Shown here in pieces: positions 1,687-63,795 of a DNA stretch of 64,000 nt. The first letter of the stretch is position 1; each line of letters starts with the position of its first letter. Under the pieces are notes generated by a model. It made no database searches. It saw only the letters and a list, made by a program, of their open reading frames with translations, and was not told the DNA's origin. The stretch spans positions 22,666-86,665 of the forward strand of contig JAUYHP010000031.1 in NCBI GenBank assembly GCA_030689595.1, given 5' to 3'. A program made the position numbers and the translations under genes. Origin of the DNA: a bacterium. GTDB lineage: Bacteria; Patescibacteriota; Minisyncoccia; UBA6257; WO2-44-18.

Positions 1687-2649
1687 TTATAAAATAATTC
1701 CCTCTTTACGCAATCGATCATTGGCGATATCTCGCAACGCTTCCCAAGCCAACCCACTACCAAGCTCACGAGAAGAGCCGCCGATAATATCAGATCCATT
1801 CCATCCATTTTCCGGGGTCAATCTCTCGGCCTCATTAAAATCACTATACAACTTGGTGACTGGGAATGGGATATATCGCGATCTCCTGCCGACAGAAAAG
1901 ACACAACGACCGTCTGGCCTCCGAGCTACCAATGAAATAAATGCATCCATGCCGTTACTGAAAAGGTAATAACGAGCTTCATTCCCACCGATTTCGTCAA
2001 CGATCTTGAATTGAGGAGAGTCGTGCAAAATCTCATGACGCGTATCTAGCTCAGTCTCTTCAGCTTGACCCATTAAATATTTATCCAATCTAGACAAAAC
2101 TGCTTCTAAATTATTAAGCATGATTTCTGGAGTAGCTGACGCCAAGCCGCCAGATTTTCTAAGTTCAGCATAAGGCCTGAACACCCAATTATGCTGCCTG
2201 ATCAACTGATCATCCAAATTCATCGGGAAAGCCCCGCCTGTAATATCCCAACGATCATCAAGCGCCAAAAGTCGATTGATATGTGGGATGTTTTGAGTGC
2301 CTTCAAATTTCTTGTAATTGATCAGCAACCACACAGCGAAGGCCGTATCTTGATCGGTGTCATTAATATAAATATTTGCATCAATTCGGCCATTCCTAGC
2401 CAGTGCCTTGGCCAAACCACCTTTAATTGCAAAGAACACTTGCATGGCGGTGCTCATGGTTGCTTCACGAACAACACCGCTATGATGATCGAAGTTGATA
2501 TGATTAGTCGTCGGATCGTAATTTGGTCCGCCGTGAACCATGCCATCAAGAGCGATTGAATACTCTGGCGTATTAGCAAGAAACCCTTCCCAATCCATAG
2601 TCTCGCGCGGCAATATAGTAATGTTAAAGGGCGTAAACCTGTGGGACAT
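1687..2649 (-). CDS. hypothetical protein (320 aa), no family recognised
   Basis: long ORF with own terminator; convergent with pnp. Confidence 0.5.
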   Translation of the reverse strand: MSHRFTPFNITILPRETMDWEGFLANTPEYSIALDGMVHGGPNYDPTTNHINFDHHSGVVREATMSTAMQVFFAIKGGLAKALARNGRIDANIYINDTDQDTAFAVWLLINYKKFEGTQNIPHINRLLALDDRWDITGGAFPMNLDDQLIRQHNWVFRPYAELRKSGGLASATPEIMLNNLEAVLSRLDKYLMGQAEETELDTRHEILHDSPQFKIVDEIGGNEARYYLFSNGMDAFISLVARRPDGRCVFSVGRRSRYIPFPVTKLYSDFNEAERLTPENGWNGSDIIGGSSRELGSGLAWEALRDIANDRLRKEGIIL

Positions 2650-2834
2650 AGAGATCTCCTTCTAGAATGGGTAAACGGGGACTTCTTAAAAACTAGCTAC
2701 ATTCTAACAGTTATCTTGATATTTGTAAAGATCGATATTCTATCCACAACAGCGATGTTGGTGATAAACTTGCGCTCATAGTACAATTAAGTGAACATCC
2801 AGTCGAACGAAATAACTAAGTAATATAATTTAAA

Positions 2835-3923
2835 ATGGCTGACGAACAAAATAACAACCCGGCCCCATTATCAGGCAATAATAATCCTGCACACGATCCG
2901 TTACCGATCGGTGGCCAAGCCCCTAGGCCAAGCGCACCAGCGCCCAAGCCACCTCAAGCAGAAGAGCAACCAAAAGAGGTTCCTCACTCACCGCCACCGC
3001 CACCACCAATAAGGCCCAGAGGAGGTGAATATAGTATCCGCACCATGGAAAGCGATTTAAAAACTGCGCCCAAAGAAGTCCTTCCGCAAAGCGATAGAGA
3101 AGGACCAGCGCCAGCTGAGGCCTCTACTACCATCCAAATGAAAAGCCCAGTTGTTGCAGAAGAAGCACCATCAAAGAAAAATCTTTATTGGATAATCGGC
3201 GGCGTAGTTCTAGCCTTGGCACTAGTAGCCGTTGGCTATTTTGTGGTTTATCCGATGCTAGTAGACAACGGCACAGATACGAGCACTCCTACAACCGGCA
3301 GCACCCCACCAGACACGACTCCGCCCATAACTATGGCAACCCCGGCACATCAATCATATTTCTTGACTAGCCCAGTGCGCGTTAGCGAAATGACCCTCGC
3401 ACCAATAAGCTTGCCCAATATCGCCTTTGGTTTGCAAAGCATTTCACTACAACCATTGGCTAGCGGCTCTACAGAAGAAGTCCTTGTAATCGGTGGTCAA
3501 GAGAATCAAATCCCATTTGCGACCTATATAACTCAATTATTGCCCGATGTGGATAGCAATAAATTATCCGACTTATTAGAAGATGATTTCACGGCCTTTA
3601 TTTACTATGATAACAACGGCTATTGGCCAGGATATGTGGCCAAACTAAAAACTGGCGCTAGCATCGATGATCTAAAGGCTGAGATAACTAAGCTAGAATC
3701 TACCGATCTGGAATCACTATTCATCACACCTCCAGGAACGATATCGGCCTTCAAAGATGGTCTAGCCGCTAACAGTAGCTACGCTACTCGCTACGCCGTA
3801 GGCTCGACTTCGGGGTCGGCTCTAAATTACGGTTATTTTGGAGATTACCTTATAATCTCCACCTCCTATGATGGCCTAACTGCTTCCCTTAATCTGACCG
3901 GGGTGATAGGCTTAATGGAATAA
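2835..3923 (+). CDS. hypothetical membrane-anchored protein, Pro-rich N-terminus, single TM, extracytoplasmic domain
   Basis: PPPPPPIRPRGG stretch, hydrophobic helix WIIGGVVLALALVAVGYFVV. Confidence 0.5.
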   Translation: MADEQNNNPAPLSGNNNPAHDPLPIGGQAPRPSAPAPKPPQAEEQPKEVPHSPPPPPPIRPRGGEYSIRTMESDLKTAPKEVLPQSDREGPAPAEASTTIQMKSPVVAEEAPSKKNLYWIIGGVVLALALVAVGYFVVYPMLVDNGTDTSTPTTGSTPPDTTPPITMATPAHQSYFLTSPVRVSEMTLAPISLPNIAFGLQSISLQPLASGSTEEVLVIGGQENQIPFATYITQLLPDVDSNKLSDLLEDDFTAFIYYDNNGYWPGYVAKLKTGASIDDLKAEITKLESTDLESLFITPPGTISAFKDGLAANSSYATRYAVGSTSGSALNYGYFGDYLIISTSYDGLTASLNLTGVIGLME

Positions 3924-7630: not shown

Positions 7631-8233
7631 CTATCTCGGCTGGAATTGTTTTGACGAGGGGCGATAGTCTGGCCGATGTTCGCCTTCATTTTCCCGCTCA
7701 CCATCACCACCCCCGAATTCAGATTCAGAGTCGGGCATGACATCTGGCCCCGATGCTTCCGGTGGTGACCATTCAAAAAATATATAATGACGCTTGCCAT
7801 TAATATACACCACTATAAAGGATCTCGGCGGGAGTTCATCAAGGCCATAGAGATATTCATTGCCATCATCATCGCTAATCCTAGCCATATAACTACCATC
7901 TGCCAATTCAAAGATTTCTTGAACAACATAGGGCCTATTTACTGCCAACCAACAGTTATCTTTGAGTGTGCCGTAACCATGAAAATAAGCCCGGTACAAT
8001 AAAGCAAGAATAACCATCGCGCCCAAAATACCAATTAAAATGCCTGGCCCCTGTCCCTGTTTCTTACTCACTGTCACCCCAGAGCCGATAAGAGCAGCCA
8101 TAGCCAGAAAAGCAATCAATACTATACCAACCACGTCCATAGCAGCCACGTCCATGCTCTGCTCCTCAAAAATGGTTATCAAAATACCTTGTGCCAGTTT
8201 AGCACAATACTCCCAGCCCGTCAAGAAAATCAA
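7631..8233 (-). CDS. membrane protein, hypothetical
   Basis: two TM helices then acidic/Gly-rich C-terminus. Confidence 0.4.
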   Translation of the reverse strand: MIFLTGWEYCAKLAQGILITIFEEQSMDVAAMDVVGIVLIAFLAMAALIGSGVTVSKKQGQGPGILIGILGAMVILALLYRAYFHGYGTLKDNCWLAVNRPYVVQEIFELADGSYMARISDDDGNEYLYGLDELPPRSFIVVYINGKRHYIFFEWSPPEASGPDVMPDSESEFGGGDGERENEGEHRPDYRPSSKQFQPR

Positions 8234-8354
8234 CTAATATGAATACGAAAGTCAACCAGGCGTCATATAAGTTTTTTTGATAATACTTTCTAGTGCTCAT
8301 AATAGCGTTCGATTGGATATTTATCAGTTTGTACCATAATTTTGCGCTATCTAA

Positions 8355-8910
8355 GTGTGAAACATCGCGAAAAGTGTGAAACATTGGTTATTTCAGCTTT
8401 ATGGCGAAAATCTCCATAAATAATCGTATTTTATCAAAAATGAGCTCATATAAATGTTTCACACTAGTGTGAAACATTTATATGGCTAAAAATTGCCTGT
8501 AAAGTGTTTGCCGGCAAACACTTTGCGCCAAAATGCGCTACGGTCTGGCGAGATGTTTCACGTGAAACATTTTAATGCTTATTAGCCACATAATGCTGGC
8601 GATGTTTGACGTGAAACATCGGGCATTGGCTTTGTAGTCTTACTCAAACATGTTTCACGGCAAACATCTGTAGCAATCAGCCACAATTGCGCATCAATTG
8701 TTTCACGTGAAACACTGGTGAGATTCCAAGCTATATTCTGGCAAATTGTTTCACGTGAAACATCTGATACCGAAATTAGTGTATAGTGATACTATCTGTT
8801 TACCGGCAAGCATGTGGTCGGAAGCGGTCATGGTCCAACATAAATGTTTCACGTGAAACAATTGTGAAACCTCAAGCTATATTTTAGCCGAATGTTTCAC
8901 GTGAAACATT
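8355..8910. repeat. tandem array of parS-type centromere palindromes (TGTTTCACGTGAAACA) at ~48-bp phasing
   Basis: perfect 16-mers at 8554, 8699, 8747, 8845 and 8893; variants at 8603 (TGTTTGACGTGAAACA), 8651 (TGTTTCACGGCAAACA), 8454-8477 (split palindrome), 8504-8521 and 8797-8812 (degenerate); two direct half-sites GTGTGAAACAT at 8355 and 8374. Confidence 0.85.
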
Positions 8911-8916
8911 CTATAT

Positions 8917-9294
8917 ATGAAAAACACATCTGCTACCGGACAATTGGGCGAGGATCTAGCCTGCGAATATCTCAAGGAAGGGGGATATAAGGTAATCGAT
9001 AGGAATTTTAGGAAGCCGTGGGGAGAATTAGATATTATCGCAAAAAGCAAAGGCGGAGTTTTGGTGTTTGTGGAAGTAAAAACTATCCGGCAATACGGCA
9101 ATGCGGCAATTGAAATTGTCCCAGAAGATAACCTAACTTCAGCTAAGTTAAAAAAGCTTCAACGTACGGCACAGATGTTTGTCGGCAAACACCCAGAATT
9201 AATAAATGACGACAGGGGATGGCAGATAGATCTAATCGCCATAACCTTGTTAGATGATGCCGAACCTAAAATAACCCATTACGAGAATATATAG
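8917..9294 (+). CDS. yraN: YraN-family (UPF0102) endonuclease
   Basis: GEDLACEYL...GELDIIA...LVFVEVKTR pattern of the YraN family. Confidence 0.75.
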   Translation: MKNTSATGQLGEDLACEYLKEGGYKVIDRNFRKPWGELDIIAKSKGGVLVFVEVKTIRQYGNAAIEIVPEDNLTSAKLKKLQRTAQMFVGKHPELINDDRGWQIDLIAITLLDDAEPKITHYENI

Positions 9295-9350
9295 CCCAAC
9301 CCATCCGTCATCCAGTCAATCTATCTATCCAAACCCGATAAATTATTAAT

Positions 9351-9390
9351 TATACCCTACTGCTTTCACATGTGAAAGCAGTAGGGTATA
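9351..9390. repeat. perfect 40-bp palindrome TATACCCTACTGCTTTCACA|TGTGAAAGCAGTAGGGTATA
   Basis: read directly; core TTTCACATGTGAAA resembles the parS core with a 2-bp centre insertion. Confidence 0.8.
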
Positions 9391-9504
9391 ATCTGGTAAT
9401 AACAAATGGTAATAACGCCAGTAATTATACTGATAATAAATAATGATTGGCGATAATAATTAGTAGTAATGAATATAAGGTCGGTATAATAATATCAACA
9501 ATAA

Positions 9505-10014
9505 TTGACAATGCACATTCCGAAAGAAAGCCCCAAAAATTTGAGCGGAAAATCAGCAATACAATGGTCAGAAAAATTATGGGATGAATTATTAGAGAAA
9601 TTGGCTAAGATTGATTCCAAAGATATTTTGAAAGACGTATTAGAAAAACTCATTAGCAACAATGAAAAAGATATGATTTTGCGCAGGCTAGCTGTAGCTG
9701 CCTTGATTCGTGATGGTAAATCTTATCGTGAAATTAGCGAAGCCCTTTGGCTATCCCACCCCACTATAAGTACCATTAAGAAAAATGTATTAGGTGATTC
9801 CAAAAATTATAAAAGTTATCGCTCTTTTTATGGCAGGCCGACTAAATGGAGTAATGACAGCAAAATCCGAAAAGAAACCAATGACGAATTTATCAATATT
9901 ATAAATGACATATCTATGTTAATTGATAAAATATCCAAGACATCGGGTCTGGGGATTCTAAGTTCTCAGGATGCACAAGCATATAGAAAAAGAGTTAGGG
10001 GAGCTAATAAATAA
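9505..10014 (+). CDS. TrpR/YerC/YecD-like helix-turn-helix DNA-binding protein
   Basis: ILRRLAVAALIRDGKSYREISEALWLSHPTISTIKKN resembles the TrpR-family HTH. Confidence 0.55.
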   Translation: MTMHIPKESPKNLSGKSAIQWSEKLWDELLEKLAKIDSKDILKDVLEKLISNNEKDMILRRLAVAALIRDGKSYREISEALWLSHPTISTIKKNVLGDSKNYKSYRSFYGRPTKWSNDSKIRKETNDEFINIINDISMLIDKISKTSGLGILSSQDAQAYRKRVRGANK

Positions 10015-10027
10015 TCACCGAACAAAT

Positions 10028-10061
10028 CCCCACTGCTTTCACATGTGAAAGCAGTAGTGGG
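10028..10061. repeat. second, imperfect copy of the CTGCTTTCACATGTGAAAGCAG palindrome
   Basis: CCCACTGCTTTCACATGTGAAAGCAGTAGTGGG immediately after the TrpR-like stop. Confidence 0.8.
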
Positions 10062-10830: not shown

Positions 10831-11489
10831 GCGAACGTTGAAATATTGAATATTGTTCATAAGCCGTCAGAGGCAAATGAGCATAGACCCCGAGGCCACA
10901 CATAATGAATCTATATGAATCATAAGGGCTTTCGGGGTCCTTTATTCCTAATAAACAATAAGGTTGTCTGTGGTGCCGCTCTCGAGTGGCACTGGTGCTT
11001 CACCTATCTAGCCTATATGGCTATGGTGGGATATCTAAGGCCGATACAGGAACCAAAAAGACCTCCGGACAGGGGGCGTGAAAGGAGGTGATGGTCTATG
11101 AGCCTGCCGTTCGGTTAGCTTAGGTGGCCCACCCGGCATCGATCAGATAGGATAACGGGTTTGTATATAGCTGTAGCCAGAGGATGCAATCCTCCCCGCC
11201 GTATCTGACGCAGGTGCCAAACGACCGAGCGACGTACGATGATACATAACACCCTGCGCTAGGCCCTCACCGACTGAGGCCGGCGCGCAACCCACCTGCC
11301 CTCAGAGGCGACCCCATGACGAGACGTCTCTAGCGCTCCCCCTGAGCTTATCTCGGGGGGAGCCAACAAAAAAACGACGCACCTGTCGTTGGGTAGTACC
11401 CCAACGACCGCGAATTTAAGCACCCGACCCTCGAAGTCATCTACCAAAGGCGATCAGCCACCGGTACGACTTCGAGGGTCATTTTTTTA
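10831..11489 (+). ncRNA. candidate large (~650 nt) GC-rich structured non-coding transcript of unknown class
   Basis: bounded by consensus promoter and a 13-bp-stem terminator; ~58% GC against ~40% background; no plus-strand ORF over 25 codons; many internal hairpins (e.g. GACCCCGAGG...CTTTCGGGGTC at 10884-10945). Confidence 0.45.
11425..11489 (+). terminator. strong rho-independent terminator
   Basis: GACCCTCGAAGTC ... GACTTCGAGGGTC followed by T7. Confidence 0.7.
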
Positions 11490-11558
11490 TCTGCCCTTTC
11501 TTTTTTCAAAAATATGGTATAATATACACAGCAAATTAGAACCTTATAACAAAATCAA

Positions 11559-28972: not shown

Positions 28973-31900
28973 ATGCTGCGTGGCCTAAAGCAATTTAATC
29001 TTCCCGACCTAGAGGAGAAAGTCCTCAAATTTTGGCAAGAAAATAATGTTTTTAAAAAATCGATAACTAATCGGGAGAAAAGTGGGGCCAAGCCCTTCCG
29101 TTTTTTTGAAGGCCCACCGACAGCCAACGGCCAACCGGGCATGCACCACGTCCTCGGTCGGGCCTTTAAAGATATCATGCTGCGCTATAAAACAATGCGC
29201 GGCTATTATGTTTGGCGAAGGGCCGGCTGGGACACGCACGGTTTGCCGGTAGAGATACAGGTTGAAAAAGAACTGGGCATAAAAAACAAGTCTGAGATCG
29301 AAAAATTTGGCATAGCAGGGTTTAATACTCGCGCCAAAGCTTCGGTGTGGAAGTATAAAATAGAATGGGAAAAATTAACCAACAGAATTGGTTTTTGGTT
29401 GGATTTTGAGAATCCATACATAACTTACGACAATAATTATATCGAAAGTCTGTGGTGGACTCTAAGCCAAATAAATAAACGCGGTCTACTTAAAAAAATA
29501 TATAAGGTGGTGCCCTGGTGCCCACGCTGCCAAACACCACTATCCAGCCACGAACTGGGTCAACCTGGCGCATATCAGAAAACCAAGGATCCATCGGCTT
29601 ACGTTAAGTTTGCATTGAAACCCCCCTCCGCCAAGACTTCGAAGGACAAACCAGCAAAAACTAAAGAGTTTTTGCTGGTTTGGACTACTACTCCATGGAC
29701 ATTGCCGGCCAATACGGCTATAGCCGTAAACCCGAAATTGACCTATACCAAATACAAAATAGGCAATGAGTATTTGTGGAGCTACAACCCGCCACCAGCG
29801 AACGATAAGACATCGGAAATACAGGTAGTAGAAAAAATATCCGGCAATAAATTAGTCGGGATCGAATATAAACCGTTATATCCAAATACAGGAACCCATA
29901 AAGTTATTGGGGCAGATTTCGTTTCCACCGAAGACGGCACAGGTTTAGTGCATATAGCTCCGGCCTTTGGCGAAGAGGACCTGAAAGCCATGTCAAGAGA
30001 AAATTTTCCGCTAGCAGATATACCAATAACCATTGACGATCTGGGGATCGTGAATAAAGGCTTGCCTGGTGCTGGTAAATTTATTAAAGATGCTGACAAA
30101 GATATATCGGCCGATTTAGCAGAGCGCGGCTTACTGTATCATCAGGATAAAATTGAACATGAATATCCATTTTGTTGGAGATGCTCGGCGCCATTGATAT
30201 ATTTTGCTCGCGATTCGTGGTTTATATCCATGAGCAAATTACGCACTAGCTTATTAGCCGCTAATAAAACAATCAACTGGGTGCCAGCACATATAAAAGA
30301 AGGGCGGTTTGGAGAGTGGCTAAGAGAAGTTAAGGATTGGGCCATATCTCGCAATCGCTACTGGGGAACGCCGCTGCCCATATGGGAATGTAACAATGAC
30401 CACAAGCTAATAATCAGCGATCTTGATGATTTGAATAAACATCGTTATAGCTTAAATAAAATCTTATATGTCAGGCATGGTGAGTCTGACCACAACCTAA
30501 GCAAGATATTGGCTAGTGGGGCTGAGCGTGGCAATAAAAAATCTAAGCTCACTAAACTAGGCACAGAACAAGTAAGTAAGTTGGCTAAAAAACTTAAGAA
30601 GGAAAACATAGATGCCATTTATGCCTCTCCTTATTTCAGGACTCGACAAACAGCAGAAACGATCGGCAAAGAGCTGGGGCTGAAAGTCGTTTATGATGAA
30701 CGCCTGGGGGAAATCCAGTTGGGTGTGTTCAATGGCATGCATGAAAGAGAGTACCGCAACTTCTTTGCCAACCCACTGGAACGATTCATTAAAACACCGC
30801 CGGGTGGAGAAAATCTAGCCGACGTTAGAAAGCGAATGCTATCGGCCGTAGCTGATATACGAGCCAAACATTCTGACAGCAATATCATAATAGTGGGACA
30901 TGGTGATCCATTGTGGCTTATGGCCAGCGGCATAAGGGGTTTGTCGAACGAAGAAACTCTGGAGGCTGATTATCCTAAGGTCGGATCATCTAGTAAATTA
31001 GCATCAAATAATTGGCCAATGGATCAAAACGGCCAACTAGATTTACATAGGCCATATATAGATAGCATATTTTTGAAATGTCCCAACTGCAAAGAGAAAA
31101 TGACCCGGATAAAAGAGGTGGCTGACGTTTGGTTCGATTCGGGTGCCATGCCTTATGCGCAATGGCATTATCCATTTGAAAACAAAGAACTGGTTGATAA
31201 GAAGCTACAATACCCGGCCGATTATATCGTTGAGGGCGTAGACCAAACCCGCGGCTGGTTTTATACCCTCTTGGCAGTCAGTACGTTACTTAAGCGTGGC
31301 GCGCCATATAAAAACGTGGTTTCGCTAGGATTGTTGTTAGATAAAAACGGACAGAAGATGTCTAAATCGAAGGGGAACGTAGTTGACCCATGGGAAATGA
31401 TTCAAAAATATGGAGCTGATACAATACGTTGGTTTTTCTATACCATCAACGCGCCCGGTGAAACTAAAAAATTCGACGAGAATGAATTGTCCAAAGTTTT
31501 GCGCAATTTCTTTTTGATGATTTACAACTCTTACAACTTTTTACAAACTTACGATGCCAGCTCCGTGGGCAAGCCCATCAAAATACTCGACACCTGGATC
31601 TTGGCTAGATTGCATCAGACAACGGCCGATGTCACCTCGAACTTGGAAAAATATGAAATCGGACAAGCAGCTAAGGTCATAGAAAAATTTGTTAATGACC
31701 TGTCACGCTGGTATATCCGACGCTCTAGAAAAAATGTATCGCCTAAAATCCTTAAGCAATCCCTAGAAACTCTAGCCAAATTGATGGCACCATTTTCACC
31801 ATTTTTTGCCGAAACGCTATATCAGGCCCTAAATGATGGAAAACAATTTAAATCTGTCCATTTAGTTGATTGGCCGGAAACTAACAAAAAGGCTCTAGAC

Positions 31901-32404
31901 GAAAATTTGTTGTCAGCTATGGATGAGTTAAGAAAATTAGCAGCCCTAGCCTTAGCGGCCAGAGAGAAAGCCGGCATAAAAGTCAGGCAACCACTTAATG
32001 TTTTAAAAATATATAGCACTAAATCTGAAATTAAAAATTATAAAGAGTTACTAATCATATTGGCCGATGAAATCAATGTTAAAAAAGTCGTTTTCGATGA
32101 AGAAGTAGACGACGTTGAATTGGATATTGAAATAACGCCGGAATTAAAAGCCGAAGGAACGATGCGTGAATTAATGCGATCTGTACAAAAACTGCGACAC
32201 GACGCTAAGTTGCAGCCCAAGGATATGATTAATCTATATATGGAATTACCAGATCAACTGAAGACCGTAGCTACAGCCAATTTGGCCAAACTTAAAAAAG
32301 ATATTAAAGCTAAATCCATAGATTTTAAAAAGGGCAAAATAGATGCCGAAACAAGTACAAAACTAGATAATCAACCCATCTGGGTAGGGCTTAAGAAAAT
32401 ATAG
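28973..32404 (+). CDS. ileS: isoleucyl-tRNA synthetase with an inserted histidine-phosphatase (PGAM/SixA-like) domain (~nt 30430-31030)
   Basis: PPTANGQPGMHHVLGRAF HIGH region, WAISRNRYWGTPLP, KMSKSKGN; internal RHGESDHN ... RTRQTA ... IIIVGHGD block matches the histidine phosphatase superfamily. Confidence 0.9.
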   Translation: MLRGLKQFNLPDLEEKVLKFWQENNVFKKSITNREKSGAKPFRFFEGPPTANGQPGMHHVLGRAFKDIMLRYKTMRGYYVWRRAGWDTHGLPVEIQVEKELGIKNKSEIEKFGIAGFNTRAKASVWKYKIEWEKLTNRIGFWLDFENPYITYDNNYIESLWWTLSQINKRGLLKKIYKVVPWCPRCQTPLSSHELGQPGAYQKTKDPSAYVKFALKPPSAKTSKDKPAKTKEFLLVWTTTPWTLPANTAIAVNPKLTYTKYKIGNEYLWSYNPPPANDKTSEIQVVEKISGNKLVGIEYKPLYPNTGTHKVIGADFVSTEDGTGLVHIAPAFGEEDLKAMSRENFPLADIPITIDDLGIVNKGLPGAGKFIKDADKDISADLAERGLLYHQDKIEHEYPFCWRCSAPLIYFARDSWFISMSKLRTSLLAANKTINWVPAHIKEGRFGEWLREVKDWAISRNRYWGTPLPIWECNNDHKLIISDLDDLNKHRYSLNKILYVRHGESDHNLSKILASGAERGNKKSKLTKLGTEQVSKLAKKLKKENIDAIYASPYFRTRQTAETIGKELGLKVVYDERLGEIQLGVFNGMHEREYRNFFANPLERFIKTPPGGENLADVRKRMLSAVADIRAKHSDSNIIIVGHGDPLWLMASGIRGLSNEETLEADYPKVGSSSKLASNNWPMDQNGQLDLHRPYIDSIFLKCPNCKEKMTRIKEVADVWFDSGAMPYAQWHYPFENKELVDKKLQYPADYIVEGVDQTRGWFYTLLAVSTLLKRGAPYKNVVSLGLLLDKNGQKMSKSKGNVVDPWEMIQKYGADTIRWFFYTINAPGETKKFDENELSKVLRNFFLMIYNSYNFLQTYDASSVGKPIKILDTWILARLHQTTADVTSNLEKYEIGQAAKVIEKFVNDLSRWYIRRSRKNVSPKILKQSLETLAKLMAPFSPFFAETLYQALNDGKQFKSVHLVDWPETNKKALDENLLSAMDELRKLAALALAAREKAGIKVRQPLNVLKIYSTKSEIKNYKELLIILADEINVKKVVFDEEVDDVELDIEITPELKAEGTMRELMRSVQKLRHDAKLQPKDMINLYMELPDQLKTVATANLAKLKKDIKAKSIDFKKGKIDAETSTKLDNQPIWVGLKKI

Positions 32405-48975: not shown

Positions 48976-49099
48976 GATCTCTCCACGGCATAGCCGTGGC
49001 AACTGGGGAGATCTCTGCGATAAGTATCGGCTCCGCCGATTAATAAAAACGTTCATTCTGAACTACGCAGTAAACGAGCTTTTTAAATCTAGAAAATTC

Positions 49100-49176
49100 T
49101 GGTGGACGGTGCAGGATTCGAACCTGCGGCCTTCTCGGTGTAAGCGAGACGCTCTAACCAACTGAGCTAACCGTCC
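49100..49176 (-). tRNA. tRNA-Val (anticodon UAC), CCA encoded
   Basis: reverse complement: acceptor GGACGGT/ACCGTCC, anticodon loop CTTACAC, T-arm GCAGGTTCGAATCCTGC. Confidence 0.85.
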
Positions 49177-49205
49177 ATCAACCCGACTCGTTAAAATCAA
49201 ATCTG

Positions 49206-49278
49206 TGCATCCACCAGGAATCGAACCTGGAACCTTCTCCTTAAGAGGGAGCTGCTCTGCCGATTGAGCTATGGATGC
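49206..49278 (-). tRNA. tRNA-Lys (anticodon CUU)
   Basis: reverse complement: acceptor GCATCCA/TGGATGC, anticodon loop CTCTTAA, T-arm CCAGGTTCGATTCCTGG. Confidence 0.8.
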
Positions 49279-49289
49279 CTATCGAACTA

Positions 49290-49361
49290 TGCCCTCGGAG
49301 GGAATCGAACCCCCATCCTATGGTTCGAAGCCATATATTCTATCCGTTGAACTACGAGGGC
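49290..49361 (-). tRNA. tRNA-Arg (anticodon UCG)
   Basis: reverse complement: acceptor GCCCTCG/CGAGGGC, anticodon loop CTTCGAA, T-arm GGGGGTTCGATTCCCTC. Confidence 0.8.
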
Positions 49362-49471
49362 TCGATGGCTAGCATAACATATATCAGTTTTACACAAATT
49401 TCAAGATAAATTAAGGCTAGCATGAAAACTGGCAGTCCTGCCTGCTGGTAGGCAGGCGATGAGGTGGGGGG

Positions 49472-49499
49472 TTGACAGATTATGTGGGTATGCTATAAT
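49472..49499 (+). promoter_or_regulatory. consensus sigma70 promoter TTGACA-16-TATAAT preceded by a G6 run
   Basis: -35 at 49472-49477, -10 at 49494-49499. Confidence 0.6.
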
Positions 49500-49634
49500 G
49501 CCACCAGATAGTAGTAAGTAGTTCTTTGAATGTTTTTTGCAGTTACCCATGCGCCGTGTTGGTGTTTGGGGTATGTACTTTCTGTCTGCATTGCTGTTTT
49601 TTGCTGTTTAACGCTTTTAGGAGGCCATAAGACA

Positions 49635-50588
49635 ATGGCCACAAAGGACAAGAAGAAGGCGTCCAACGAGACGCCCGAGACGATCGAGACGATCGAGACT
49701 ACCGCAGCCGCCAGCCGCACCAAACAGCCCCGACCGGAGCGAGCCCTCACGGGCCAAGCTCTGACGGAACTGAGGATCCCGGCATCATTGGCCGAAAAGC
49801 CGGTGACGCCACACGCCTTCAGCGTCGTAAATAAGGCGCTCACGCACCAGCAGCTGGCCCGCTTCATGGGCCAGATGGTGGATACGGCCACGGCCAACGT
49901 GGTCGAAGTGGTAGCCGGGTTCGAAGCTGACACCCTCAGCTTCGAACCGGATGTCCGAGTCGGTCAGGAGTTCTACTCGGAAACGAGTGGACGCCTGTCC
50001 ACCGGCGAAGACAACACGGCGGCGCTCAGCATCGGTGGAGAGGCCCACGGCGGCCTCCAGCTGACGCTGGCGCAGGTGACTCCGCTCTTGGAGGAGTTCC
50101 GGGAGCAGCTCGCGCAGGAGCGCGAGGAAAAGCAGGCGGTCTACGCATTCGCCGACGACGGCGATAAGACGTCCTGCTACCTCGCCGCCGACTGCGGCAC
50201 CAAGTCGTTCCATCCTCGCAGCCTCAACGTGGTGCGGTGGCGGAATGGCGAGGCGACCATCGTCAACGACGAGACAGGTAAGCCGAGACGCATCGGCAGC
50301 TACCGTGCCGTCGAAGTTGACGGAGTCCTGATATGTGTGGCCTTCTGCCCGAGCTGCATCAACGCAGCGAGGAAGAACCACCAGCTCGACAGCCGGTTCT
50401 TCACGTCGGAGGACGTGGATGCCCTCATCAAGAGGCGGTTGGCCCAGGCCAACAGGCAGGCCGATCGCATCTCTGGGCTCGAGAATGCCCTCGGACCGCG
50501 CACCGATCGCAACGACCGCGGAACCAGCGGCTGGAAACCCCGCTTCAAGAAGCAGCGGGGGACGCACGGCGGATCTGTCCGCCGCTGA
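49635..50588 (+). CDS. hypothetical protein (317 aa) in a ~62% GC foreign-looking islet; start chosen at the ATG with AGGAGG RBS (the ORF opens at 49530)
   Basis: AGGAGG-9nt-ATG; protein-like composition, whereas the antisense 269-aa ORF is R/A/G/P-rich and judged spurious. Confidence 0.5.
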   Translation: MATKDKKKASNETPETIETIETTAAASRTKQPRPERALTGQALTELRIPASLAEKPVTPHAFSVVNKALTHQQLARFMGQMVDTATANVVEVVAGFEADTLSFEPDVRVGQEFYSETSGRLSTGEDNTAALSIGGEAHGGLQLTLAQVTPLLEEFREQLAQEREEKQAVYAFADDGDKTSCYLAADCGTKSFHPRSLNVVRWRNGEATIVNDETGKPRRIGSYRAVEVDGVLICVAFCPSCINAARKNHQLDSRFFTSEDVDALIKRRLAQANRQADRISGLENALGPRTDRNDRGTSGWKPRFKKQRGTHGGSVRR

Positions 50589-50597
50589 ACACAACCC

Positions 50598-50646
50598 AGA
50601 GAGGAGAAGGAGAAGTTTTTCTTCTCCTCTCTGGGTATTTTTTTCT
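50598..50646 (+). terminator. rho-independent terminator
   Basis: AGAGAGGAGAAG...CTTCTCCTCTCT + GGGTATTTTTTT. Confidence 0.55.
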
Positions 50647-50911
50647 TTCGACTCTGCTCAAGACAAGTAAAATCATGAGAATTTAACTTTGCAACCCTTC
50701 GACAAGCTCAGGGCAAGCGCCCTTCGGCTTCACTCAGGGCAAGCCCTTCGGCAAGTTTATAGTGAACTCGCCGAACTACTCAGGGCAAGCCCCAATGGGT
50801 AATAAAGTTAAGTTCTTTAAAAACAAAGGTCTCTGTTTCTTAACCAGCGGTGTTTTATTGGTTTTTATCTTAAGAAACCACATAAACTCCACATTTCTAA
50901 AGGAGCGGCCG

Positions 50912-51709
50912 ATGAATAGCGGCAGCAATGAACGACCTGATGATTTTATTAATAAGGCTATGATTCTTTTCGGCAAAGGCAATATGACTGAGCCTAGTGC
51001 CGATGAGGATCATGGTATGTATGAGCGCATGCAAGCAGCTTGCAGTGGCTTGCGTGAATATCTTGACCGTCTTCGGCGTAATCAAGGGCGTGTTTGCTTT
51101 AGCACTCAGAATGCTATGAGTGATTTAAGCAAGCAATTTATCAATGCCGTCAAGAAAGGCGACTACGATGCAATAAATTTCACTGACCGCGCCATGGAAA
51201 TGTTGGCTGATGGCTTTGACGACGCCGCGAATAACGGTGAAATCGCCGAGGTCGGCAGCCGTTTCAGCCGCACCATCAGGCAGGAGCAGATGGAAGCCCT
51301 CCTCTTTGGCCAAATCTGGCCAGTCATCGTCGGCAATGAAGATGCCGTGCCAGAGCTCATCCACTGGCAAGACTTCAGAGGTAATGTGCAGGCATATCTT
51401 TATGGATATATTGATGTTGCCACCGAACTGGCCAAGGCGCTTACCGAAGTGCTGTCTAGTGAGTTGACAACGGATGGCAAGCTCATGACGCGCCAAGTTG
51501 AGATTGACATGTATCGGCGATATCTGGCCATTGCCGATTCAATTGCGCTTGGACTCTCGGGCTTCCGACATATCCCCAGCTATATCATCAGCAACGGCTA
51601 TGGACGCTGGTTGGCGTTCTCCAATAAGTTGCGGACGGTCTATGGCTGTATCGCCAATATCCGCCGCGATTATAACTTGAGGTTAAGCATACTTCGGATT
51701 GAAAAATAA
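50912..51709 (+). CDS. hypothetical all-alpha protein, possible Translin-family member (start at the ATG with AAGGAG RBS; the ORF opens at 50762)
   Basis: VQAYLYGYIDVATEL resembles the Translin YLeGlaDltGEL segment; weak. Confidence 0.3.
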   Translation: MNSGSNERPDDFINKAMILFGKGNMTEPSADEDHGMYERMQAACSGLREYLDRLRRNQGRVCFSTQNAMSDLSKQFINAVKKGDYDAINFTDRAMEMLADGFDDAANNGEIAEVGSRFSRTIRQEQMEALLFGQIWPVIVGNEDAVPELIHWQDFRGNVQAYLYGYIDVATELAKALTEVLSSELTTDGKLMTRQVEIDMYRRYLAIADSIALGLSGFRHIPSYIISNGYGRWLAFSNKLRTVYGCIANIRRDYNLRLSILRIEK

Positions 51710-51730
51710 ATTGATGCATAACAACACTAC

Positions 51731-51760
51731 GCCCTCCGATATTCATCGGAGGGCTTTTTC
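51731..51760 (+). terminator. rho-independent terminator
   Basis: GCCCTCCGAT-ATTCAT-CGGAGGGC + TTTTT. Confidence 0.65.
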
Positions 51761-51782
51761 ATAAAATCTCTAAGTCTAGAAA

Positions 51783-52823
51783 CTATTTTGCAAACGGATT
51801 TCTGGCACCCCTAACCTCAAAGTGCAGATGACAACCAGTCGGGCCATGAGTGTTGCCCGTACTGCCGATGTAAGCGATTAAATCACCTTGCAAAACATAA
51901 TCACCAACGGAGACAACATTGCGTTGAGTATGCGAATAACGAGTGACTACACTATTTGGATGCTCAATATCAATATAATGACCGTAACCGCTATTCCAGC
52001 CGTAGGAACTCTCATCAACAATTAAACCTTCGGCAGCGGCATAGATGGGCGTGCCGCAAGCATTGGCGATATCTACGGCATTATAATTATGAAGCCGGCC
52101 CCAATTCCAGCCGACTGCTGGAGAAATGAAATAACCGTCAAGATTTACTAAAGTATTATCGGATAAACTAGAAAGATATTCACGATTGGGCCGACCGCCG
52201 GGGATTATTATTTTAGTGCCGGTCACCAAATTACCATTGGCAATCGTCGGATTAACCTCAATAATTCGATCAGCACCGATACTGTATAAATTAGCAATAT
52301 GCTCTAGCGTGTCGCCCTCTTGCACTTGATGAGCTATGCCCGAGACGGGCAAGACAACTATCTCCTGACCAGGACGAATAACACTGCTCAAATCACGATT
52401 GGCCCACAGTACCGTATTGAGCGAAATTTCAAAATTAGCGGCAATAGTAGACAAAGTATCCCCAGCTTGGATTTTGTAGACCATTAGGCCATCACGAGTA
52501 GGCAACAAGCTGCTAAGTGGGTTGGAGGAATTAAGTAGAGAGCCGCTATCTAATAACAGAAATCCAGCCACATCTTGGCCATGAAAAGCCCCATCTAAAT
52601 CGCCGCTGATGCTATTTTCCGCCAAAAAAGAGTCGTAATCAGCACCGATGATCGTTTCAACGCTAGCTAACACCGGCCCACCCAAACCAGCTATACCGCT
52701 GCCAGAAAGCGACCAAAAAAGCACGTTAAACAATATGCCCCCAACTACAAAAACAACCGATATAACGGTTGTTGGCTTAATATTTCTTATGTTTTTATAT
52801 ATAGTACTAATAGCTTTAATCAT
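51783..52823 (-). CDS. LysM-domain-containing M23 (LytM-type) peptidoglycan endopeptidase, membrane-anchored
   Basis: two LysM repeats (YKIQAGDTLSTIAANF..., HQVQEGDTLEHIANLY...), C-terminal HxH zinc site GCHLHFEV. Confidence 0.8.
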   Translation of the reverse strand: MIKAISTIYKNIRNIKPTTVISVVFVVGGILFNVLFWSLSGSGIAGLGGPVLASVETIIGADYDSFLAENSISGDLDGAFHGQDVAGFLLLDSGSLLNSSNPLSSLLPTRDGLMVYKIQAGDTLSTIAANFEISLNTVLWANRDLSSVIRPGQEIVVLPVSGIAHQVQEGDTLEHIANLYSIGADRIIEVNPTIANGNLVTGTKIIIPGGRPNREYLSSLSDNTLVNLDGYFISPAVGWNWGRLHNYNAVDIANACGTPIYAAAEGLIVDESSYGWNSGYGHYIDIEHPNSVVTRYSHTQRNVVSVGDYVLQGDLIAYIGSTGNTHGPTGCHLHFEVRGARNPFAK

Positions 52824-60820: not shown

Positions 60821-61354
60821 ATGGCACAATATCAAGTACCACAATTTATCGAAGCGGAAGATAAAATCGTCGGACCACTAACCTTAAAGCAATTTTTATA
60901 TATAGGCGCAGGTGCAGCGGTGATTTTTCTGACGTTTTTTATATTGAAATTTTTTCTCTGGCTTATTCTGGCATCGGTGGTGGCCATATTATCGCTCGCC
61001 ATGGCTTTCGTAAAATATAATGGTCGGCCGCTACCGAAGATAATGGTATCGGCTTTCCAATATTTCTGGAGTCCACGCATGTACACCTGGCAAAGAGAAG
61101 ATACTAAAATCGAGGTCCCTGACGTCAAAATACCAAAAATGCCACAAGCGCCCACACCAATCAAAGTTGTACCAAGGGAAGAAATCGAAGAAAAGCCGCC
61201 AGTGCCACTTAAAAAACTGAAGCTGAAACTATCAACTAGCAACGAAGCTGCGACAGTCCAGCCGAATGCAGAAAAAGGTAGGCATGACCTATTCCAAATT
61301 TTTAGAAAAACCACCGGCGAGAGAGATGTGGCCAGAAGAATAGATTATAGATAA
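60821..61354 (+). CDS. small 2-TM protein, PrgI/VirB3-like (tentative)
   Basis: hairpin of two TM helices immediately upstream of VirB4-like genes. Confidence 0.4.
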   Translation: MAQYQVPQFIEAEDKIVGPLTLKQFLYIGAGAAVIFLTFFILKFFLWLILASVVAILSLAMAFVKYNGRPLPKIMVSAFQYFWSPRMYTWQREDTKIEVPDVKIPKMPQAPTPIKVVPREEIEEKPPVPLKKLKLKLSTSNEAATVQPNAEKGRHDLFQIFRKTTGERDVARRIDYR

Positions 61355-61376
61355 TAAACAAGATATCAGCTATTCG

Positions 61377-62081
61377 TTGTATAATAAGAATATGGCAAAG
61401 AAATCCGACACAAAACCAACACAACAATTTGTAGAAATCGAAGGGGTTCGTGATGGTGTTTTGACATTAAAAAATGGCGGCTTGCGTAGAATATTAATGG
61501 TCAACGGTGTCAATTTTGACCTGAAGTCAGAAGAAGAACAAAATTTGATAATCTTCAGTTATCAAAATTTTATTAATGGCTTGGATTTTTCCGTGCAAAC
61601 TCTGGTACATTCACGCAAATTGAATATCGACACTTATTTGGGAAAGTTGGATGACCGACGCTCTCAAGAAGACAATGAGCTGTTGCGTAATCAAATTGGT
61701 GAATATCAACAATTTATACGCTCTTTTGTAAACGAAAATGCGATTATGGAGAAAACCTTCTTCGTGGTTGTGTCATTCGATGGTATCCAAATAGGAGAAG
61801 TCGGTCAAAAATTGTCTGAAAAGCTTTTGAGCTTCCTACCGTTTAAAAAAACAGCTGCCAAAAAAAATGAAGCCGCCGAAGCCGCTAAAGCTCAAAAAGA
61901 GCAGAGCCGAGTACACAATATCGAACAACTGGATCAGCGCGTTAACCAGGTTATAGCGGGATTGCGCCAGATAGGTCTAAACGTAGCTCAACTCAATGAC
62001 GAACAAATTATTGAATTATTCTATAATCTATACAATCCCAAGACCGTCGAGAAAGAAACGCTAGAAATAGCGCGACGATAA
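61377..62081 (+). CDS. VirB4/TrsE N-terminal-domain-like protein (separate ORF)
   Basis: ends TAA 4 nt before the VirB4 ATPase ORF; length 234 aa plus 569 aa is about a full VirB4. Confidence 0.35.
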   Translation: MYNKNMAKKSDTKPTQQFVEIEGVRDGVLTLKNGGLRRILMVNGVNFDLKSEEEQNLIIFSYQNFINGLDFSVQTLVHSRKLNIDTYLGKLDDRRSQEDNELLRNQIGEYQQFIRSFVNENAIMEKTFFVVVSFDGIQIGEVGQKLSEKLLSFLPFKKTAAKKNEAAEAAKAQKEQSRVHNIEQLDQRVNQVIAGLRQIGLNVAQLNDEQIIELFYNLYNPKTVEKETLEIARR

Positions 62082-62085
62082 TAAT

Positions 62086-63795
62086 ATGGAAAATAAATTT
62101 GAAGAAATAAAAAACGTTATAGCACCGGCGGCCCTAGAGGTATCGTCTAACTATATTAAAATCGGCGATAAAGTTACTAAGACGTTGTTTATCTTTACTT
62201 ACCCCCGCTATCTTTCCACTGGTTGGTTCTCTCCAATCATCAATTTGCCGGAATTATTAGATATATCGATTTTCGTACATCCGGTAGAAACCGCTTTAGC
62301 TCTAAAAAATCTCCGCAAAAAAGCCACCCAAATACAGGCCCAACTTAGCGAACGAGAAGAAAAGGGCCTAGTCAGAGATCCAATCTTGGAAACAGCTTTT
62401 CAAGATATTGAAAATCTGCGTGATTCATTGCAACAATCACGCGAAAATCTATTTAATATCGGGGTCTATATTACGCTATATGCTGACAACGTTGAAGAGC
62501 TTAGTAAGCTAGAGTCACGCGTGACCTCTATGCTAGAAAGTCGTCTGGTATATCTCAAATCAGCGGCCTTTCAACAAATCGATGGCTTCACTTCCACGCT
62601 GCCAATAGCTTCTGATAAATTATCTATACACACATCACTAAACTCGAGCCCAGCCTCATCACTGTTCCCGTTTTCTTCAGCCAATTTAACTTCTGATGAA
62701 GGCGTGCTTTACGGCATAAACCGCCATAACAATACCCTAATTATCTTTGACCGATTTTCACTGGAGAACGCTAACGTGGTTATTTTTGCTAAATCAGGCG
62801 CTGGTAAATCATATTTCACCAAATTGGAGGCGCTAAGATTAATGATGCTAGGAACTGACGTCTTGATCATTGATCCTGAAAATGAATATGAAAACTTAGC
62901 CACAGCAGTCGGGGGTAGTTTTTTCAAAATATCTTTAACCTCTGACAACAATATCAATCCCTTTGATATCCCGCCCATACCCAAAGGCGAGTCGTCTGGC
63001 GAAGTGCTTAGATCACATATAGTCAATTTAACTGGTTTGATAAAATTGATGCTGGGCAAGATAACTCCATCCGAAGACGCATTATTGGACCAGGCAATTT
63101 CCGAAACTTATGCCGCTAACGATGTTGTCCCAGGTAAAGACTTCGCTAACGCTCCACCACCACTCTTGGAAAATCTGCAGACTGTTCTAGAAAACATGGA
63201 AGGTGGCCGTGAGATGGCCCAACGTCTATATAAATTCGTTAAAGGTAGTTATGCGGGTTTCACTAATAAGCCAACTAATATAGATATTAAAAATAGACTG
63301 ATCGTATTTTCGATACGCGACCTAGAAGAAGAATTGAGACCAATAGCTATGTATATAATTCTTAATTTTATCTGGAATTTAATCAGATCTAACCTTAAGC
63401 GCCGAACGTTATTTATCGATGAAGCTTGGTGGATGATGAAACACGAAGATGGCGCCACTTTTCTATTCAGTCTAGTAAAAAGAGCGCGCAAATATTATTT
63501 GGGCGTTACAACCATAACTCAAGACATAGAAGACTTCCTTAATTCACCTTATGGCCGCCCGATCTTAACTAATTCATCGCTGCAGCTGCTATTGAAACAA
63601 TCATCAGCTACGATAGATATCTTAGGCAAAGCCTTTAATCTAACTCAAAGCGAAAAAAATTTGTTGCTGGAAGCCGAAGTGGGTCAAGGCCTGTTCTTCG
63701 CTGGACCAAATCACGTTGCCATCCAGATTATAGCTTCTTACTATGAAGATAAGATTATCACCACCAATCCCGAACAGTTATTACAACAGCAATAA
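62086..63795 (+). CDS. VirB4/TrsE-family type IV secretion ATPase (C-terminal ATPase portion)
   Basis: Walker A AKSGAGKS, Walker B LFIDEAWWMM, VirB4 C-terminal motifs. Confidence 0.75.
   Translation: MENKFEEIKNVIAPAALEVSSNYIKIGDKVTKTLFIFTYPRYLSTGWFSPIINLPELLDISIFVHPVETALALKNLRKKATQIQAQLSEREEKGLVRDPILETAFQDIENLRDSLQQSRENLFNIGVYITLYADNVEELSKLESRVTSMLESRLVYLKSAAFQQIDGFTSTLPIASDKLSIHTSLNSSPASSLFPFSSANLTSDEGVLYGINRHNNTLIIFDRFSLENANVVIFAKSGAGKSYFTKLEALRLMMLGTDVLIIDPENEYENLATAVGGSFFKISLTSDNNINPFDIPPIPKGESSGEVLRSHIVNLTGLIKLMLGKITPSEDALLDQAISETYAANDVVPGKDFANAPPPLLENLQTVLENMEGGREMAQRLYKFVKGSYAGFTNKPTNIDIKNRLIVFSIRDLEEELRPIAMYIILNFIWNLIRSNLKRRTLFIDEAWWMMKHEDGATFLFSLVKRARKYYLGVTTITQDIEDFLNSPYGRPILTNSSLQLLLKQSSATIDILGKAFNLTQSEKNLLLEAEVGQGLFFAGPNHVAIQIIASYYEDKIITTNPEQLLQQQ

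Follow-up and report, generated by a model that had tools for sequence, protein, structure and literature searches.

I found that the gene-free region directly upstream of yraN in a 64,000-nucleotide stretch of a Parcubacteria genome (contig JAUYHP010000031.1, assembly GCA_030689595.1; the whole stretch is hereafter called the window) carries a phased array of parS sites. This region, from 8353 to 8908, is probably a compact chromosomal centromere of a bacterium of the Candidate Phyla Radiation (CPR), a site where the partition protein ParB would be loaded. CPR bacteria, or Patescibacteria, are ultra-small and mostly uncultured. In the ParABS systems of other bacteria, a ParB dimer recognises the 16-bp palindrome parS via two helix-turn-helix domains, and parS triggers the closure of ParB into a clamp in a manner dependent on cytidine triphosphate (CTP). 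The clamp then slides off parS, which allows repeated loading, and the complex is moved by ParA and recruits SMC. The parS consensus is TGTTNCACGTGAAACA, and the totals of parS sites are 10 in Bacillus subtilis (8 of them in the ori domain) and 4 in Streptococcus pneumoniae (Table 1 of PMC7022226).

As listed in Table 1, ten 16-bp sites that are copies or variants of parS span 8456-8908. All of them are non-coding and lie inside a 761-bp region without genes (8156-8916). A pattern search of the window located five perfect copies of TGTTTCACGTGAAACA, a 16-bp palindrome that matches the parS consensus TGTTNCACGTGNAACA. When up to three mismatches to parS were allowed, seven matches were found in the 64 kb, all of them in the array, where 0.16 were expected; none of 100 shuffled sequences reached seven. 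An earlier note on this DNA had claimed the same five perfect sites, a total of about ten with the variants, a split palindrome at 8454-8477, a regular spacing, a motif common to two spacers, and an array end just before the yraN start codon. All of these held up, with the split palindrome now placed at 8456-8477 and the degenerate sites at 8505 and 8797. The split palindrome is roughly in phase with the array (46 bp centre to centre). The conservation extends beyond the 16-mer: among 20 perfect sites from four genomes, the position -2 is A in 15 and the position +2 is T in 18. Such symmetric conservation of the flanks is the pattern expected of a dimeric binder.

Table 1. Features in and around the parS array (positions in the window)
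Feature	Position	Strand	Basis or remark
Left neighbour, 174-aa orphan, probably a membrane protein	7631-8155	-	Divergent to yraN; only database match is its own record Q8O87_02895, hypothetical protein
Two lone parS half-sites AAGTGTGAAACAT	8353-8365, 8372-8384	+	One orientation, toward yraN; sequence reading, repeat family
Split palindrome TGTTTCAC-ACTAGT-GTGAAACA	8456-8463 + 8470-8477		Inside 19-nt perfectly complementary arms, 8447-8484
Variant site TGTTTGCCGGCAAACA	8505-8520		Perfect palindrome; parS outer arms, GCCGGC core; opens the first of the three-site units
Perfect parS TGTTTCACGTGAAACA	8554-8569		Pattern search
parS with 1 mismatch TGTTTGACGTGAAACA	8603-8618		Pattern search
Hybrid site TGTTTCACGGCAAACA, 2 mismatches	8651-8666		Canonical half and variant (GGC) half
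Perfect parS TGTTTCACGTGAAACA	8699-8714		Pattern search
Perfect parS TGTTTCACGTGAAACA	8747-8762		Pattern search
Degenerate variant site TGTTTACCGGCAAGCA	8797-8812		Repeat search
Perfect parS TGTTTCACGTGAAACA	8845-8860		Followed by 1-mismatch half-site GTGAAACC at 8863-8870
Perfect parS TGTTTCACGTGAAACA	8893-8908		Last site; 8 nt separate it from the yraN ATG at 8917
yraN, UPF0102 family, predicted PD-(D/E)xK nuclease	8917-9294	+	PF02021, E 1e-21
Further variant site TGTTTGTCGGCAAACA	9176-9191		Inside the yraN ORF (open reading frame), codons M-F-V-G-K-H

The sites are evenly spaced. Over the ten sites, the centre-to-centre distance is 46-50 bp (mean 48.2, standard deviation 1.0), and from 8505 onward the sites start 49, 49, 48, 48, 48, 50, 48, and 48 bp apart. 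The eight spacers are each 32-34 nt in length, and their mean pairwise identity is 0.28, which is about random. Only one pair reaches 0.66, and it is this pair that shares the motif CAAGCTATATT, found twice. Thus, the length of the spacers is held while their sequences are unrelated, which points to selection on the spacing. Tandem Repeats Finder reported no tandem repeat in the array. The earlier proposal of a simple, ancient tandem duplication of a 48-bp unit is therefore weakly supported; what traces there are suggest a larger unit. Sites with a G/C-rich core recur at every third position (8505, 8651, and 8797), and the alignment of the ~146-bp units reveals a faint higher-order unit of three sites. 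With 10.4-10.5 bp per helical turn, three spacings (~145 bp) would correspond to roughly 14 turns.

The array is not an artefact of assembly, since an independent assembly of the read set SRR13727534 matches it exactly: a Logan contig of 924 bp (L001; locus labels of this type are my own) is identical to the window from 8455 to 9378. Furthermore, the window is chromosomal, as judged by its housekeeping genes and its seven tRNA genes. According to Pfam, it encodes PNPase, a ComM-like Mg-chelatase, RecG, TsaD, RecO (N-terminal domain), several aminoacyl-tRNA synthetases, RNase J, UvrC, UvrD/PcrA, KsgA, a sigma factor of the extracytoplasmic function (ECF) type, and the CCA-adding enzyme. The earlier note had considered a plasmid or phage origin on the one hand and a compacted chromosomal centromere on the other. 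The former has to be given up in view of these genes, of the recurrence of the array-yraN pair in chromosomal Parcubacteria contigs, and of the lack of resemblance to PLSDB entries; the latter is the reading that best fits the evidence.

Is the array conserved upstream of yraN in related genomes? It was found that arrays of parS sites or of the half-site GTGAAACA occupy the gene-free region upstream of yraN in at least eight related loci. The window YraN has homologues of up to 68% identity, and those with names belong to Candidatus Harrisonbacteria, Candidatus Wolfebacteria, and a 'Parcubacteria group bacterium', which identifies the source of the window as a Parcubacterium. Five of the loci (L364, L365, L367, L369, and L370) have half-site or imperfect arrays, and in L364, L365, and L367/L368 a gene-free gap of ~640-690 bp lies directly upstream of yraN. 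The copies of the 8-mer GTGAAACA are concentrated within 750 bp upstream of yraN: 16 of 18 in the window, 9 of 9 in L364, 9 of 9 in L367, 7 of 9 in L365, 5 of 5 in L369, and 2 of 2 in L370. The boxes of these relatives are mostly lone half-sites that share an orientation; a few are split palindromes or near-complete sites, and split sites with a 6-9-bp spacer occur in all five loci. The other three loci (L331, L340, and L344) were retrieved by tblastn of parS-array loci and have 4, 4-5, and 6 perfect canonical parS sites, respectively, 70-200 bp upstream of yraN. Their YraN proteins are only 37-44% identical to that of the window. Thus, the linkage is old and has kept the sequence exactly parS. 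Over all yraN-linked loci, the spacings between neighbours fall into two groups, 13-19 bp and ~40-57 bp. The conserved object is a yraN-linked array of parS or half-parS boxes, and the version in the window is among the most regular.

The surroundings of the array vary. The 174-aa orphan on the left is not conserved in the relatives and is probably outside the array system. On the right, yraN is followed by nusA in L331, L340, and L344, as in L365 and L367, and a small conserved HExxH protein (119-177 aa) follows yraN in L364, L365, and L367, where the window has a TrpR-like gene (9505-10014). The TrpR-like protein was considered as a local binder of the array and rejected; the HExxH protein, which is unrelated to it, takes its place in these three loci. 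In L369, the boxes lie further upstream, and an ORF for a LAGLIDADG homing endonuclease (9454-9963) stands between them and yraN. L371 also has such an ORF directly upstream of yraN (9448-9918) and no exact box; the two loci come from a Harrisonbacteria and a Wolfebacteria genome. The variant site within yraN at 9176 may reflect only conserved coding sequence; the yraN gene of L370 has similar sites at about the same place.

Next to which genes do phased parS arrays lie elsewhere? Two scans were performed. One, covering one genome per species, looked for two parS sites 36-66 bp apart, and the other looked in metagenomes for three perfect parS sites 41-56 bp apart; each yielded at least 120 loci. 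The exceptional density that the earlier note had ascribed to the array is not upheld by these numbers. Among the genome matches listed, the two densest clusters are both from CPR bacteria, L097 (Parcubacteria group) and L085 (Moranbacteria). In roughly half of the metagenome matches listed, parA (with the motif KGGVGKT) and parB (GERRWRA) directly adjoin the array. Several Clostridia-like loci have the order rsmG-[array]-soj-spo0J, one of which (L323) has 10 sites ~55 bp apart. The Parcubacterium L261 has five perfect parS sites that begin 270 bp upstream of dnaA, and in L097, L090, and L335 the array is beside gyrA. Phased canonical arrays thus lie elsewhere beside parA-parB, soj-spo0J, dnaA, or gyrA, where centromeres are expected, and this supports the centromere reading. 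Dense phased arrays of canonical parS are thus a widespread and apparently under-described centromere layout in uncultured bacteria.

Some of these loci deserve mention in their own right. In L335 (10443-11380), 23 parS sites with a strict 41-42-bp period lie between a tadA-like deaminase gene and gyrA, on a contig of 23% GC. L351 (13219-14014; identical to L373 and L374) has a true tandem repeat of at least 18 units of 44 bp, each with TGTTCCACGTGGAACA and with conserved spacers. The stop codon of a Soj-type parA marks the beginning of this array, which lies in an origin region with the order gyrA-gyrB-dnaN-dnaA / rnpA-yidD-yidC-parA. Both public assemblies of the locus stop within the array; short-read contigs often break off at such loci because of the phased parS arrays. 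In other CPR genomes, perfect parS sites lie inside a putative Wzy_C (O-antigen-ligase-like) ORF of a membrane protein (L097, 6840-7934; L300, 1654-2529; L085, 6189-7973; L292, ~2300-3800), and these ORFs stay open through 6-10 parS sites. The Wzy_C ORF of L097 has its parS sites in three-site modules of ~130 bp, and in L097 and L300 it is beside gyrA. Moreover, a single human-gut data set (3300045988; loci L122-L241, e.g. L126, L128, and L135) contributes dozens of IMG/VR contigs of ~11 kb that have two canonical parS sites ~42 bp apart at one contig end or at both. These contigs probably represent small circular elements, plasmid-like or of the phage-plasmid kind, that have a centromere of the chromosomal type.

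How might the array work? It would offer about ten ParB-binding sites, namely five perfect, two near-perfect, and three core-variant sites, with lone and split half-sites alongside. ParB dimers would recognise these sites and load as CTP-dependent clamps, as in other ParABS systems, and the outcome would be one large partition complex on which ParA and/or SMC could act. With seven good sites in 350 bp, a high loading rate might be reached from a very small footprint. That the interval stays at ~48 bp while the spacer sequence is free suggests that neighbouring dimers are subject to a steric or helical-phase constraint, and the selected spacing would set successive dimers about a third of a turn apart round the helix. 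The complex probably also damps the transcription of yraN. Since the last site nearly reaches the yraN start codon and the upstream gene is divergent, any yraN promoter must lie inside the array. Repression of genes adjoining intergenic parS sites is known, for example, for parS3 and parS4 of Pseudomonas aeruginosa (PMC7022226), and this precedent makes the repression of yraN by ParB plausible. In addition, ParB is known to bind the half-parS sequences GTTTCAC and GTTCCAC, the former of which is bound by several ParBs in chromatin immunoprecipitation sequencing (ChIP-seq) experiments (PMC7022226; PMC10419367). Half-site binding can account for the half-site arrays of the relatives, though not for their orientation bias.

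Several observations weigh against the centromere reading. As the earlier note had already stated for parA and parB, no parA, parB, or smc gene was found in the 64-kb window, nor in the 8 kb to its left: the window ORFs of at least 100 aa that were tested have no match to the Pfam domains of ParA, ParB, DnaA, or SMC, and the motifs GERRxRA, KGGxGKT, and RDHTTV occur in none of the frames of the window. In seven related loci, parA, parB, and smc are likewise absent within 10 kb on either side of yraN. No Parcubacteria ParB sequence was found, and the Parcubacteria loci examined contain none; the ParB of this genome is inferred from its putative sites alone. The inspected contigs with parAB beside an array are Clostridia- or Proteobacteria-like in gene content, and a homologue search with the ParA of L351 returned Soj-type matches with no CPR names and no clear taxon. 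Literature searches on parS or ParB in CPR bacteria, Patescibacteria, Parcubacteria, and Saccharibacteria returned nothing relevant. The half-sites of L364, L365, and L367 are skewed in orientation (8:1, 5:2, and 7:2), unlike classical chromosomal parS, and such one-orientation half-sites are not predicted by a simple decay of palindromes. Lastly, a position near the origin is not evident in this genome, where no dnaA was found from about -8 to +55 kb. On the other hand, gyrA lies ~12 kb to the left of the array, which would favour the centromere reading. The 8-kb left flank of the window contains rpsA, a gene of the metallo-beta-lactamase (MBL) fold, and this gyrA. In L261, gyrA is 6-8 kb from dnaA, and gyrA, dnaN, dnaA, and the parS array are packed in ~10 kb. 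The GC-skew check for the origin was run on the window and found no clean sign change at 8.5 kb, being uninformative at this scale.

These points leave room for a variant of the centromere reading, in which Parcubacteria have a centromere design of their own: a yraN-linked landing pad uncoupled from parAB and dnaA, selected for its spacing, in which oriented half-sites have replaced the palindromes in some lineages. I regard it as rather unlikely that the design is distinct to this degree. If it were, either ParB would nucleate on half-sites of one orientation with no need of a full parS, or the half-site would have been taken over by a different protein. YraN, as a predicted nuclease, might also have a functional tie to the complex instead of simply lying next to it.

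A different protein altogether is the next alternative. A lineage-specific binder other than ParB, of the iteron type or one that organises the nucleoid, might recognise an oriented 8-11-mer, G(C/T)GTGAAACAT, and the palindromes in the window would then be inverted pairs of this box that coincide with parS. The boxes of the relatives are indeed mostly single, in one orientation, and extend to GCGTGAAACAT; direct pairs of boxes 13-19 bp apart recur in them, and parAB is not near any yraN-linked array. However, the 8-mer GTGAAACA is an exact parS half-site, the full 16-mer consensus occurs 5, 4, 4-5, and 6 times in four different genomes, and the flanks of the perfect sites are conserved symmetrically. 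Nor is a conserved candidate encoded nearby, where even the gene downstream of yraN varies between genomes, and ParB is already known to bind half-parS (PMC7022226). For these reasons, I consider a binder of this kind improbable.

Could the region instead be the replication origin (oriC) itself, where TGTTTCACA would serve as a divergent DnaA box? The gene-free region is large (about 650-760 bp) and conserved, many oriented boxes that resemble 9-mers occur in it, its left part (8234-8480) has an A+T content of 62-74%, and gyrA is not far off. By my own comparison, TGTTTCACA shares 6 of 9 positions with the canonical DnaA box TTATCCACA, the CACA end included. Canonical DnaA boxes, however, are not enriched in the window (17 versus 15.9 expected), and the array has only one box with a single mismatch. 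In L261, canonical TTATCCACA boxes are found on both sides of dnaA, and the parS sites form a separate, adjacent cluster. Neither dnaA nor dnaN was found within about -8 to +55 kb of the array or within 10 kb on either side of yraN in the relatives. In the window, L367, and L369, the genes to either side of the array share one orientation for the most part, with no strand switch, and the GC skew of the window does not change sign cleanly at the array. An oriC combines clustered DnaA boxes with an AT-rich unwinding element and usually lies next to dnaA. With neither an enrichment of such boxes nor a dnaA nearby, this very improbable reading was rejected.

An RNA-producing array of repeats and spacers, of the type of CRISPR (clustered regularly interspaced short palindromic repeats) or of TIGR (tandem interspaced guide RNA), is hardly credible. 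The 16-20-bp palindromic repeats and the unrelated 32-34-nt spacers would suit it, and Parcubacteria do have TIGR-Tas arrays, which in some cases are linked to ParB-like genes (PMC12045711). By Pfam, however, no cas gene and no tas gene (Nop domain) exists in the window, and the array has neither the second (loop) repeat nor the box C/D motif that characterise TIGR (PMC12045711). No Rfam family reached its gathering score; the 31 bits of WsnRNA46, against a gathering score of 65, are not meaningful. The repeat is the universal parS sequence, present in distantly related genomes, and the arrays of the relatives are irregular, with single half-sites. Known CRISPR repeats are longer than the repeat of this array. 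With neither cas/tas genes nor dual repeats with box C/D, the region was excluded from this class. A tandem centromere of the plasmid or phage type, like sopC, was also rejected, given the housekeeping chromosomal context, the lack of a PLSDB match and of par genes nearby, and spacers that do not make a true tandem repeat.

The centromere reading, if correct, gives the segregation of CPR chromosomes a concrete and conserved cis element, namely about ten phased parS sites upstream of yraN. My literature searches found no paper on chromosome segregation in CPR bacteria or Patescibacteria, and none describing phased parS arrays for CPR bacteria. Among the relatives, the sites grade naturally from perfect palindromes through split ones to oriented half-sites, and this series could show how much change in site architecture is compatible with ParB recognition and clamp loading. 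Tightly phased arrays of 3 to 23 parS sites are common in uncultured bacteria, so that the textbook view, with its few parS sites in dispersed positions, needs qualification; such arrays are also of practical use for locating origin regions in metagenome-assembled genomes.

Other features of the window and its flank were noted in passing. A 22-nt palindrome, CTGCTTTCACATGTGAAAGCAG, occurs twice exactly (9360-9381 and 10033-10054; none expected), and its copies flank the TrpR-like ORF. Its centre, TTTCAC-AT-GTGAAA, resembles a parS core into which 2 bp have been inserted, and the palindrome might serve as a terminator or an operator or be a small mobile hairpin. An ORF-free, GC-rich region (10880-11495, plus strand), located between the TrpR-like gene and recG, ends in a strong hairpin and a T-run. 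Its predicted folding energy is -243.6 kcal/mol (z = -5.6 versus shuffles), and no Rfam match was found at E <= 1; it may be an undescribed structured RNA. The ORF at 28973-32404 encodes a class-I aminoacyl-tRNA synthetase of 1143 aa (tRNA-synt_1, Anticodon_1) with a complete histidine-phosphatase domain (His_Phos_1, E 4e-38) inserted at residues 498-665. The region 49000-52000 has a GC content of 0.52-0.54 versus ~0.43 elsewhere, contains two ORFs with no Pfam match (49530-50588 and 50762-51709), and adjoins three clustered tRNA genes; this DNA may have been acquired. At its right end (60821-63795), the window has genes that resemble those of type IV secretion (PrgI family, TraC-like, VirB4/TraG P-loop ATPase). 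To the left of the window, T4SS (type IV secretion system)-pilin genes are beside gyrA (L372, 16101-16790), and the same pilin-SBP-gyrA block is present in L364.

Compared with known systems, the array is a variation rather than something categorically new: a putative chromosomal parS centromere whose sites are packed very densely and in phase, which lies apart from parAB, and whose place upstream of yraN is conserved in Parcubacteria. Its 16-bp palindrome is identical to the consensus of chromosomal ParABS systems (TGTTNCACGTGAAACA), such as the sites of Spo0J in B. subtilis and the clusters near the origin in Caulobacter, Pseudomonas, Corynebacterium, Myxococcus, and Streptomyces. It also shares with them the presence of several sites per chromosome, of sites with one or two mismatches alongside perfect ones, and of intergenic sites adjoining a potentially repressible gene, like parS3 and parS4 of P. 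aeruginosa. Known chromosomal parS sites, however, lie kilobases apart, whereas the window has ten sites in ~450 bp at a fixed interval of ~48 bp. It also differs from these systems in having no parAB within about -8 to +55 kb, in its conservation upstream of yraN, and in its half-site-dominated relatives.

In the sopC centromere of the F plasmid, a 43-bp unit that contains a 16-bp inverted repeat, to which SopB binds, is repeated 12 times in tandem. The two are alike in that about ten or so 16-bp palindromes form a regular array with a fixed interval (43-48 bp) and a single centromere. In contrast, sopC is a true tandem repeat with conserved spacers and its own site sequence, and it is plasmid-borne beside sopAB, whereas the window array has unrelated spacers, the chromosomal parS site, a chromosomal context, and no adjacent partner genes. 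The closest chromosomal analogue of sopC that was observed is the array of L351, with its 44-bp units and conserved spacers directly after parA. The window array further resembles the tandem parS sites next to parAB in uncultured bacteria, for instance in L323, which number three to ten perfect sites 41-56 bp apart. Those parAB-adjoining arrays could also act as the operator of the par operon, whereas the window array is detached from any par gene. Finally, the half-parS GTTTCAC of P. aeruginosa and others is also contained in the GTGAAACA and TGTTTCAC boxes of the array. Pseudomonas has hundreds of half-sites dispersed throughout its genome, whereas those of the yraN-linked arrays are gathered at one locus, phased, and, in some relatives, mostly in one orientation.

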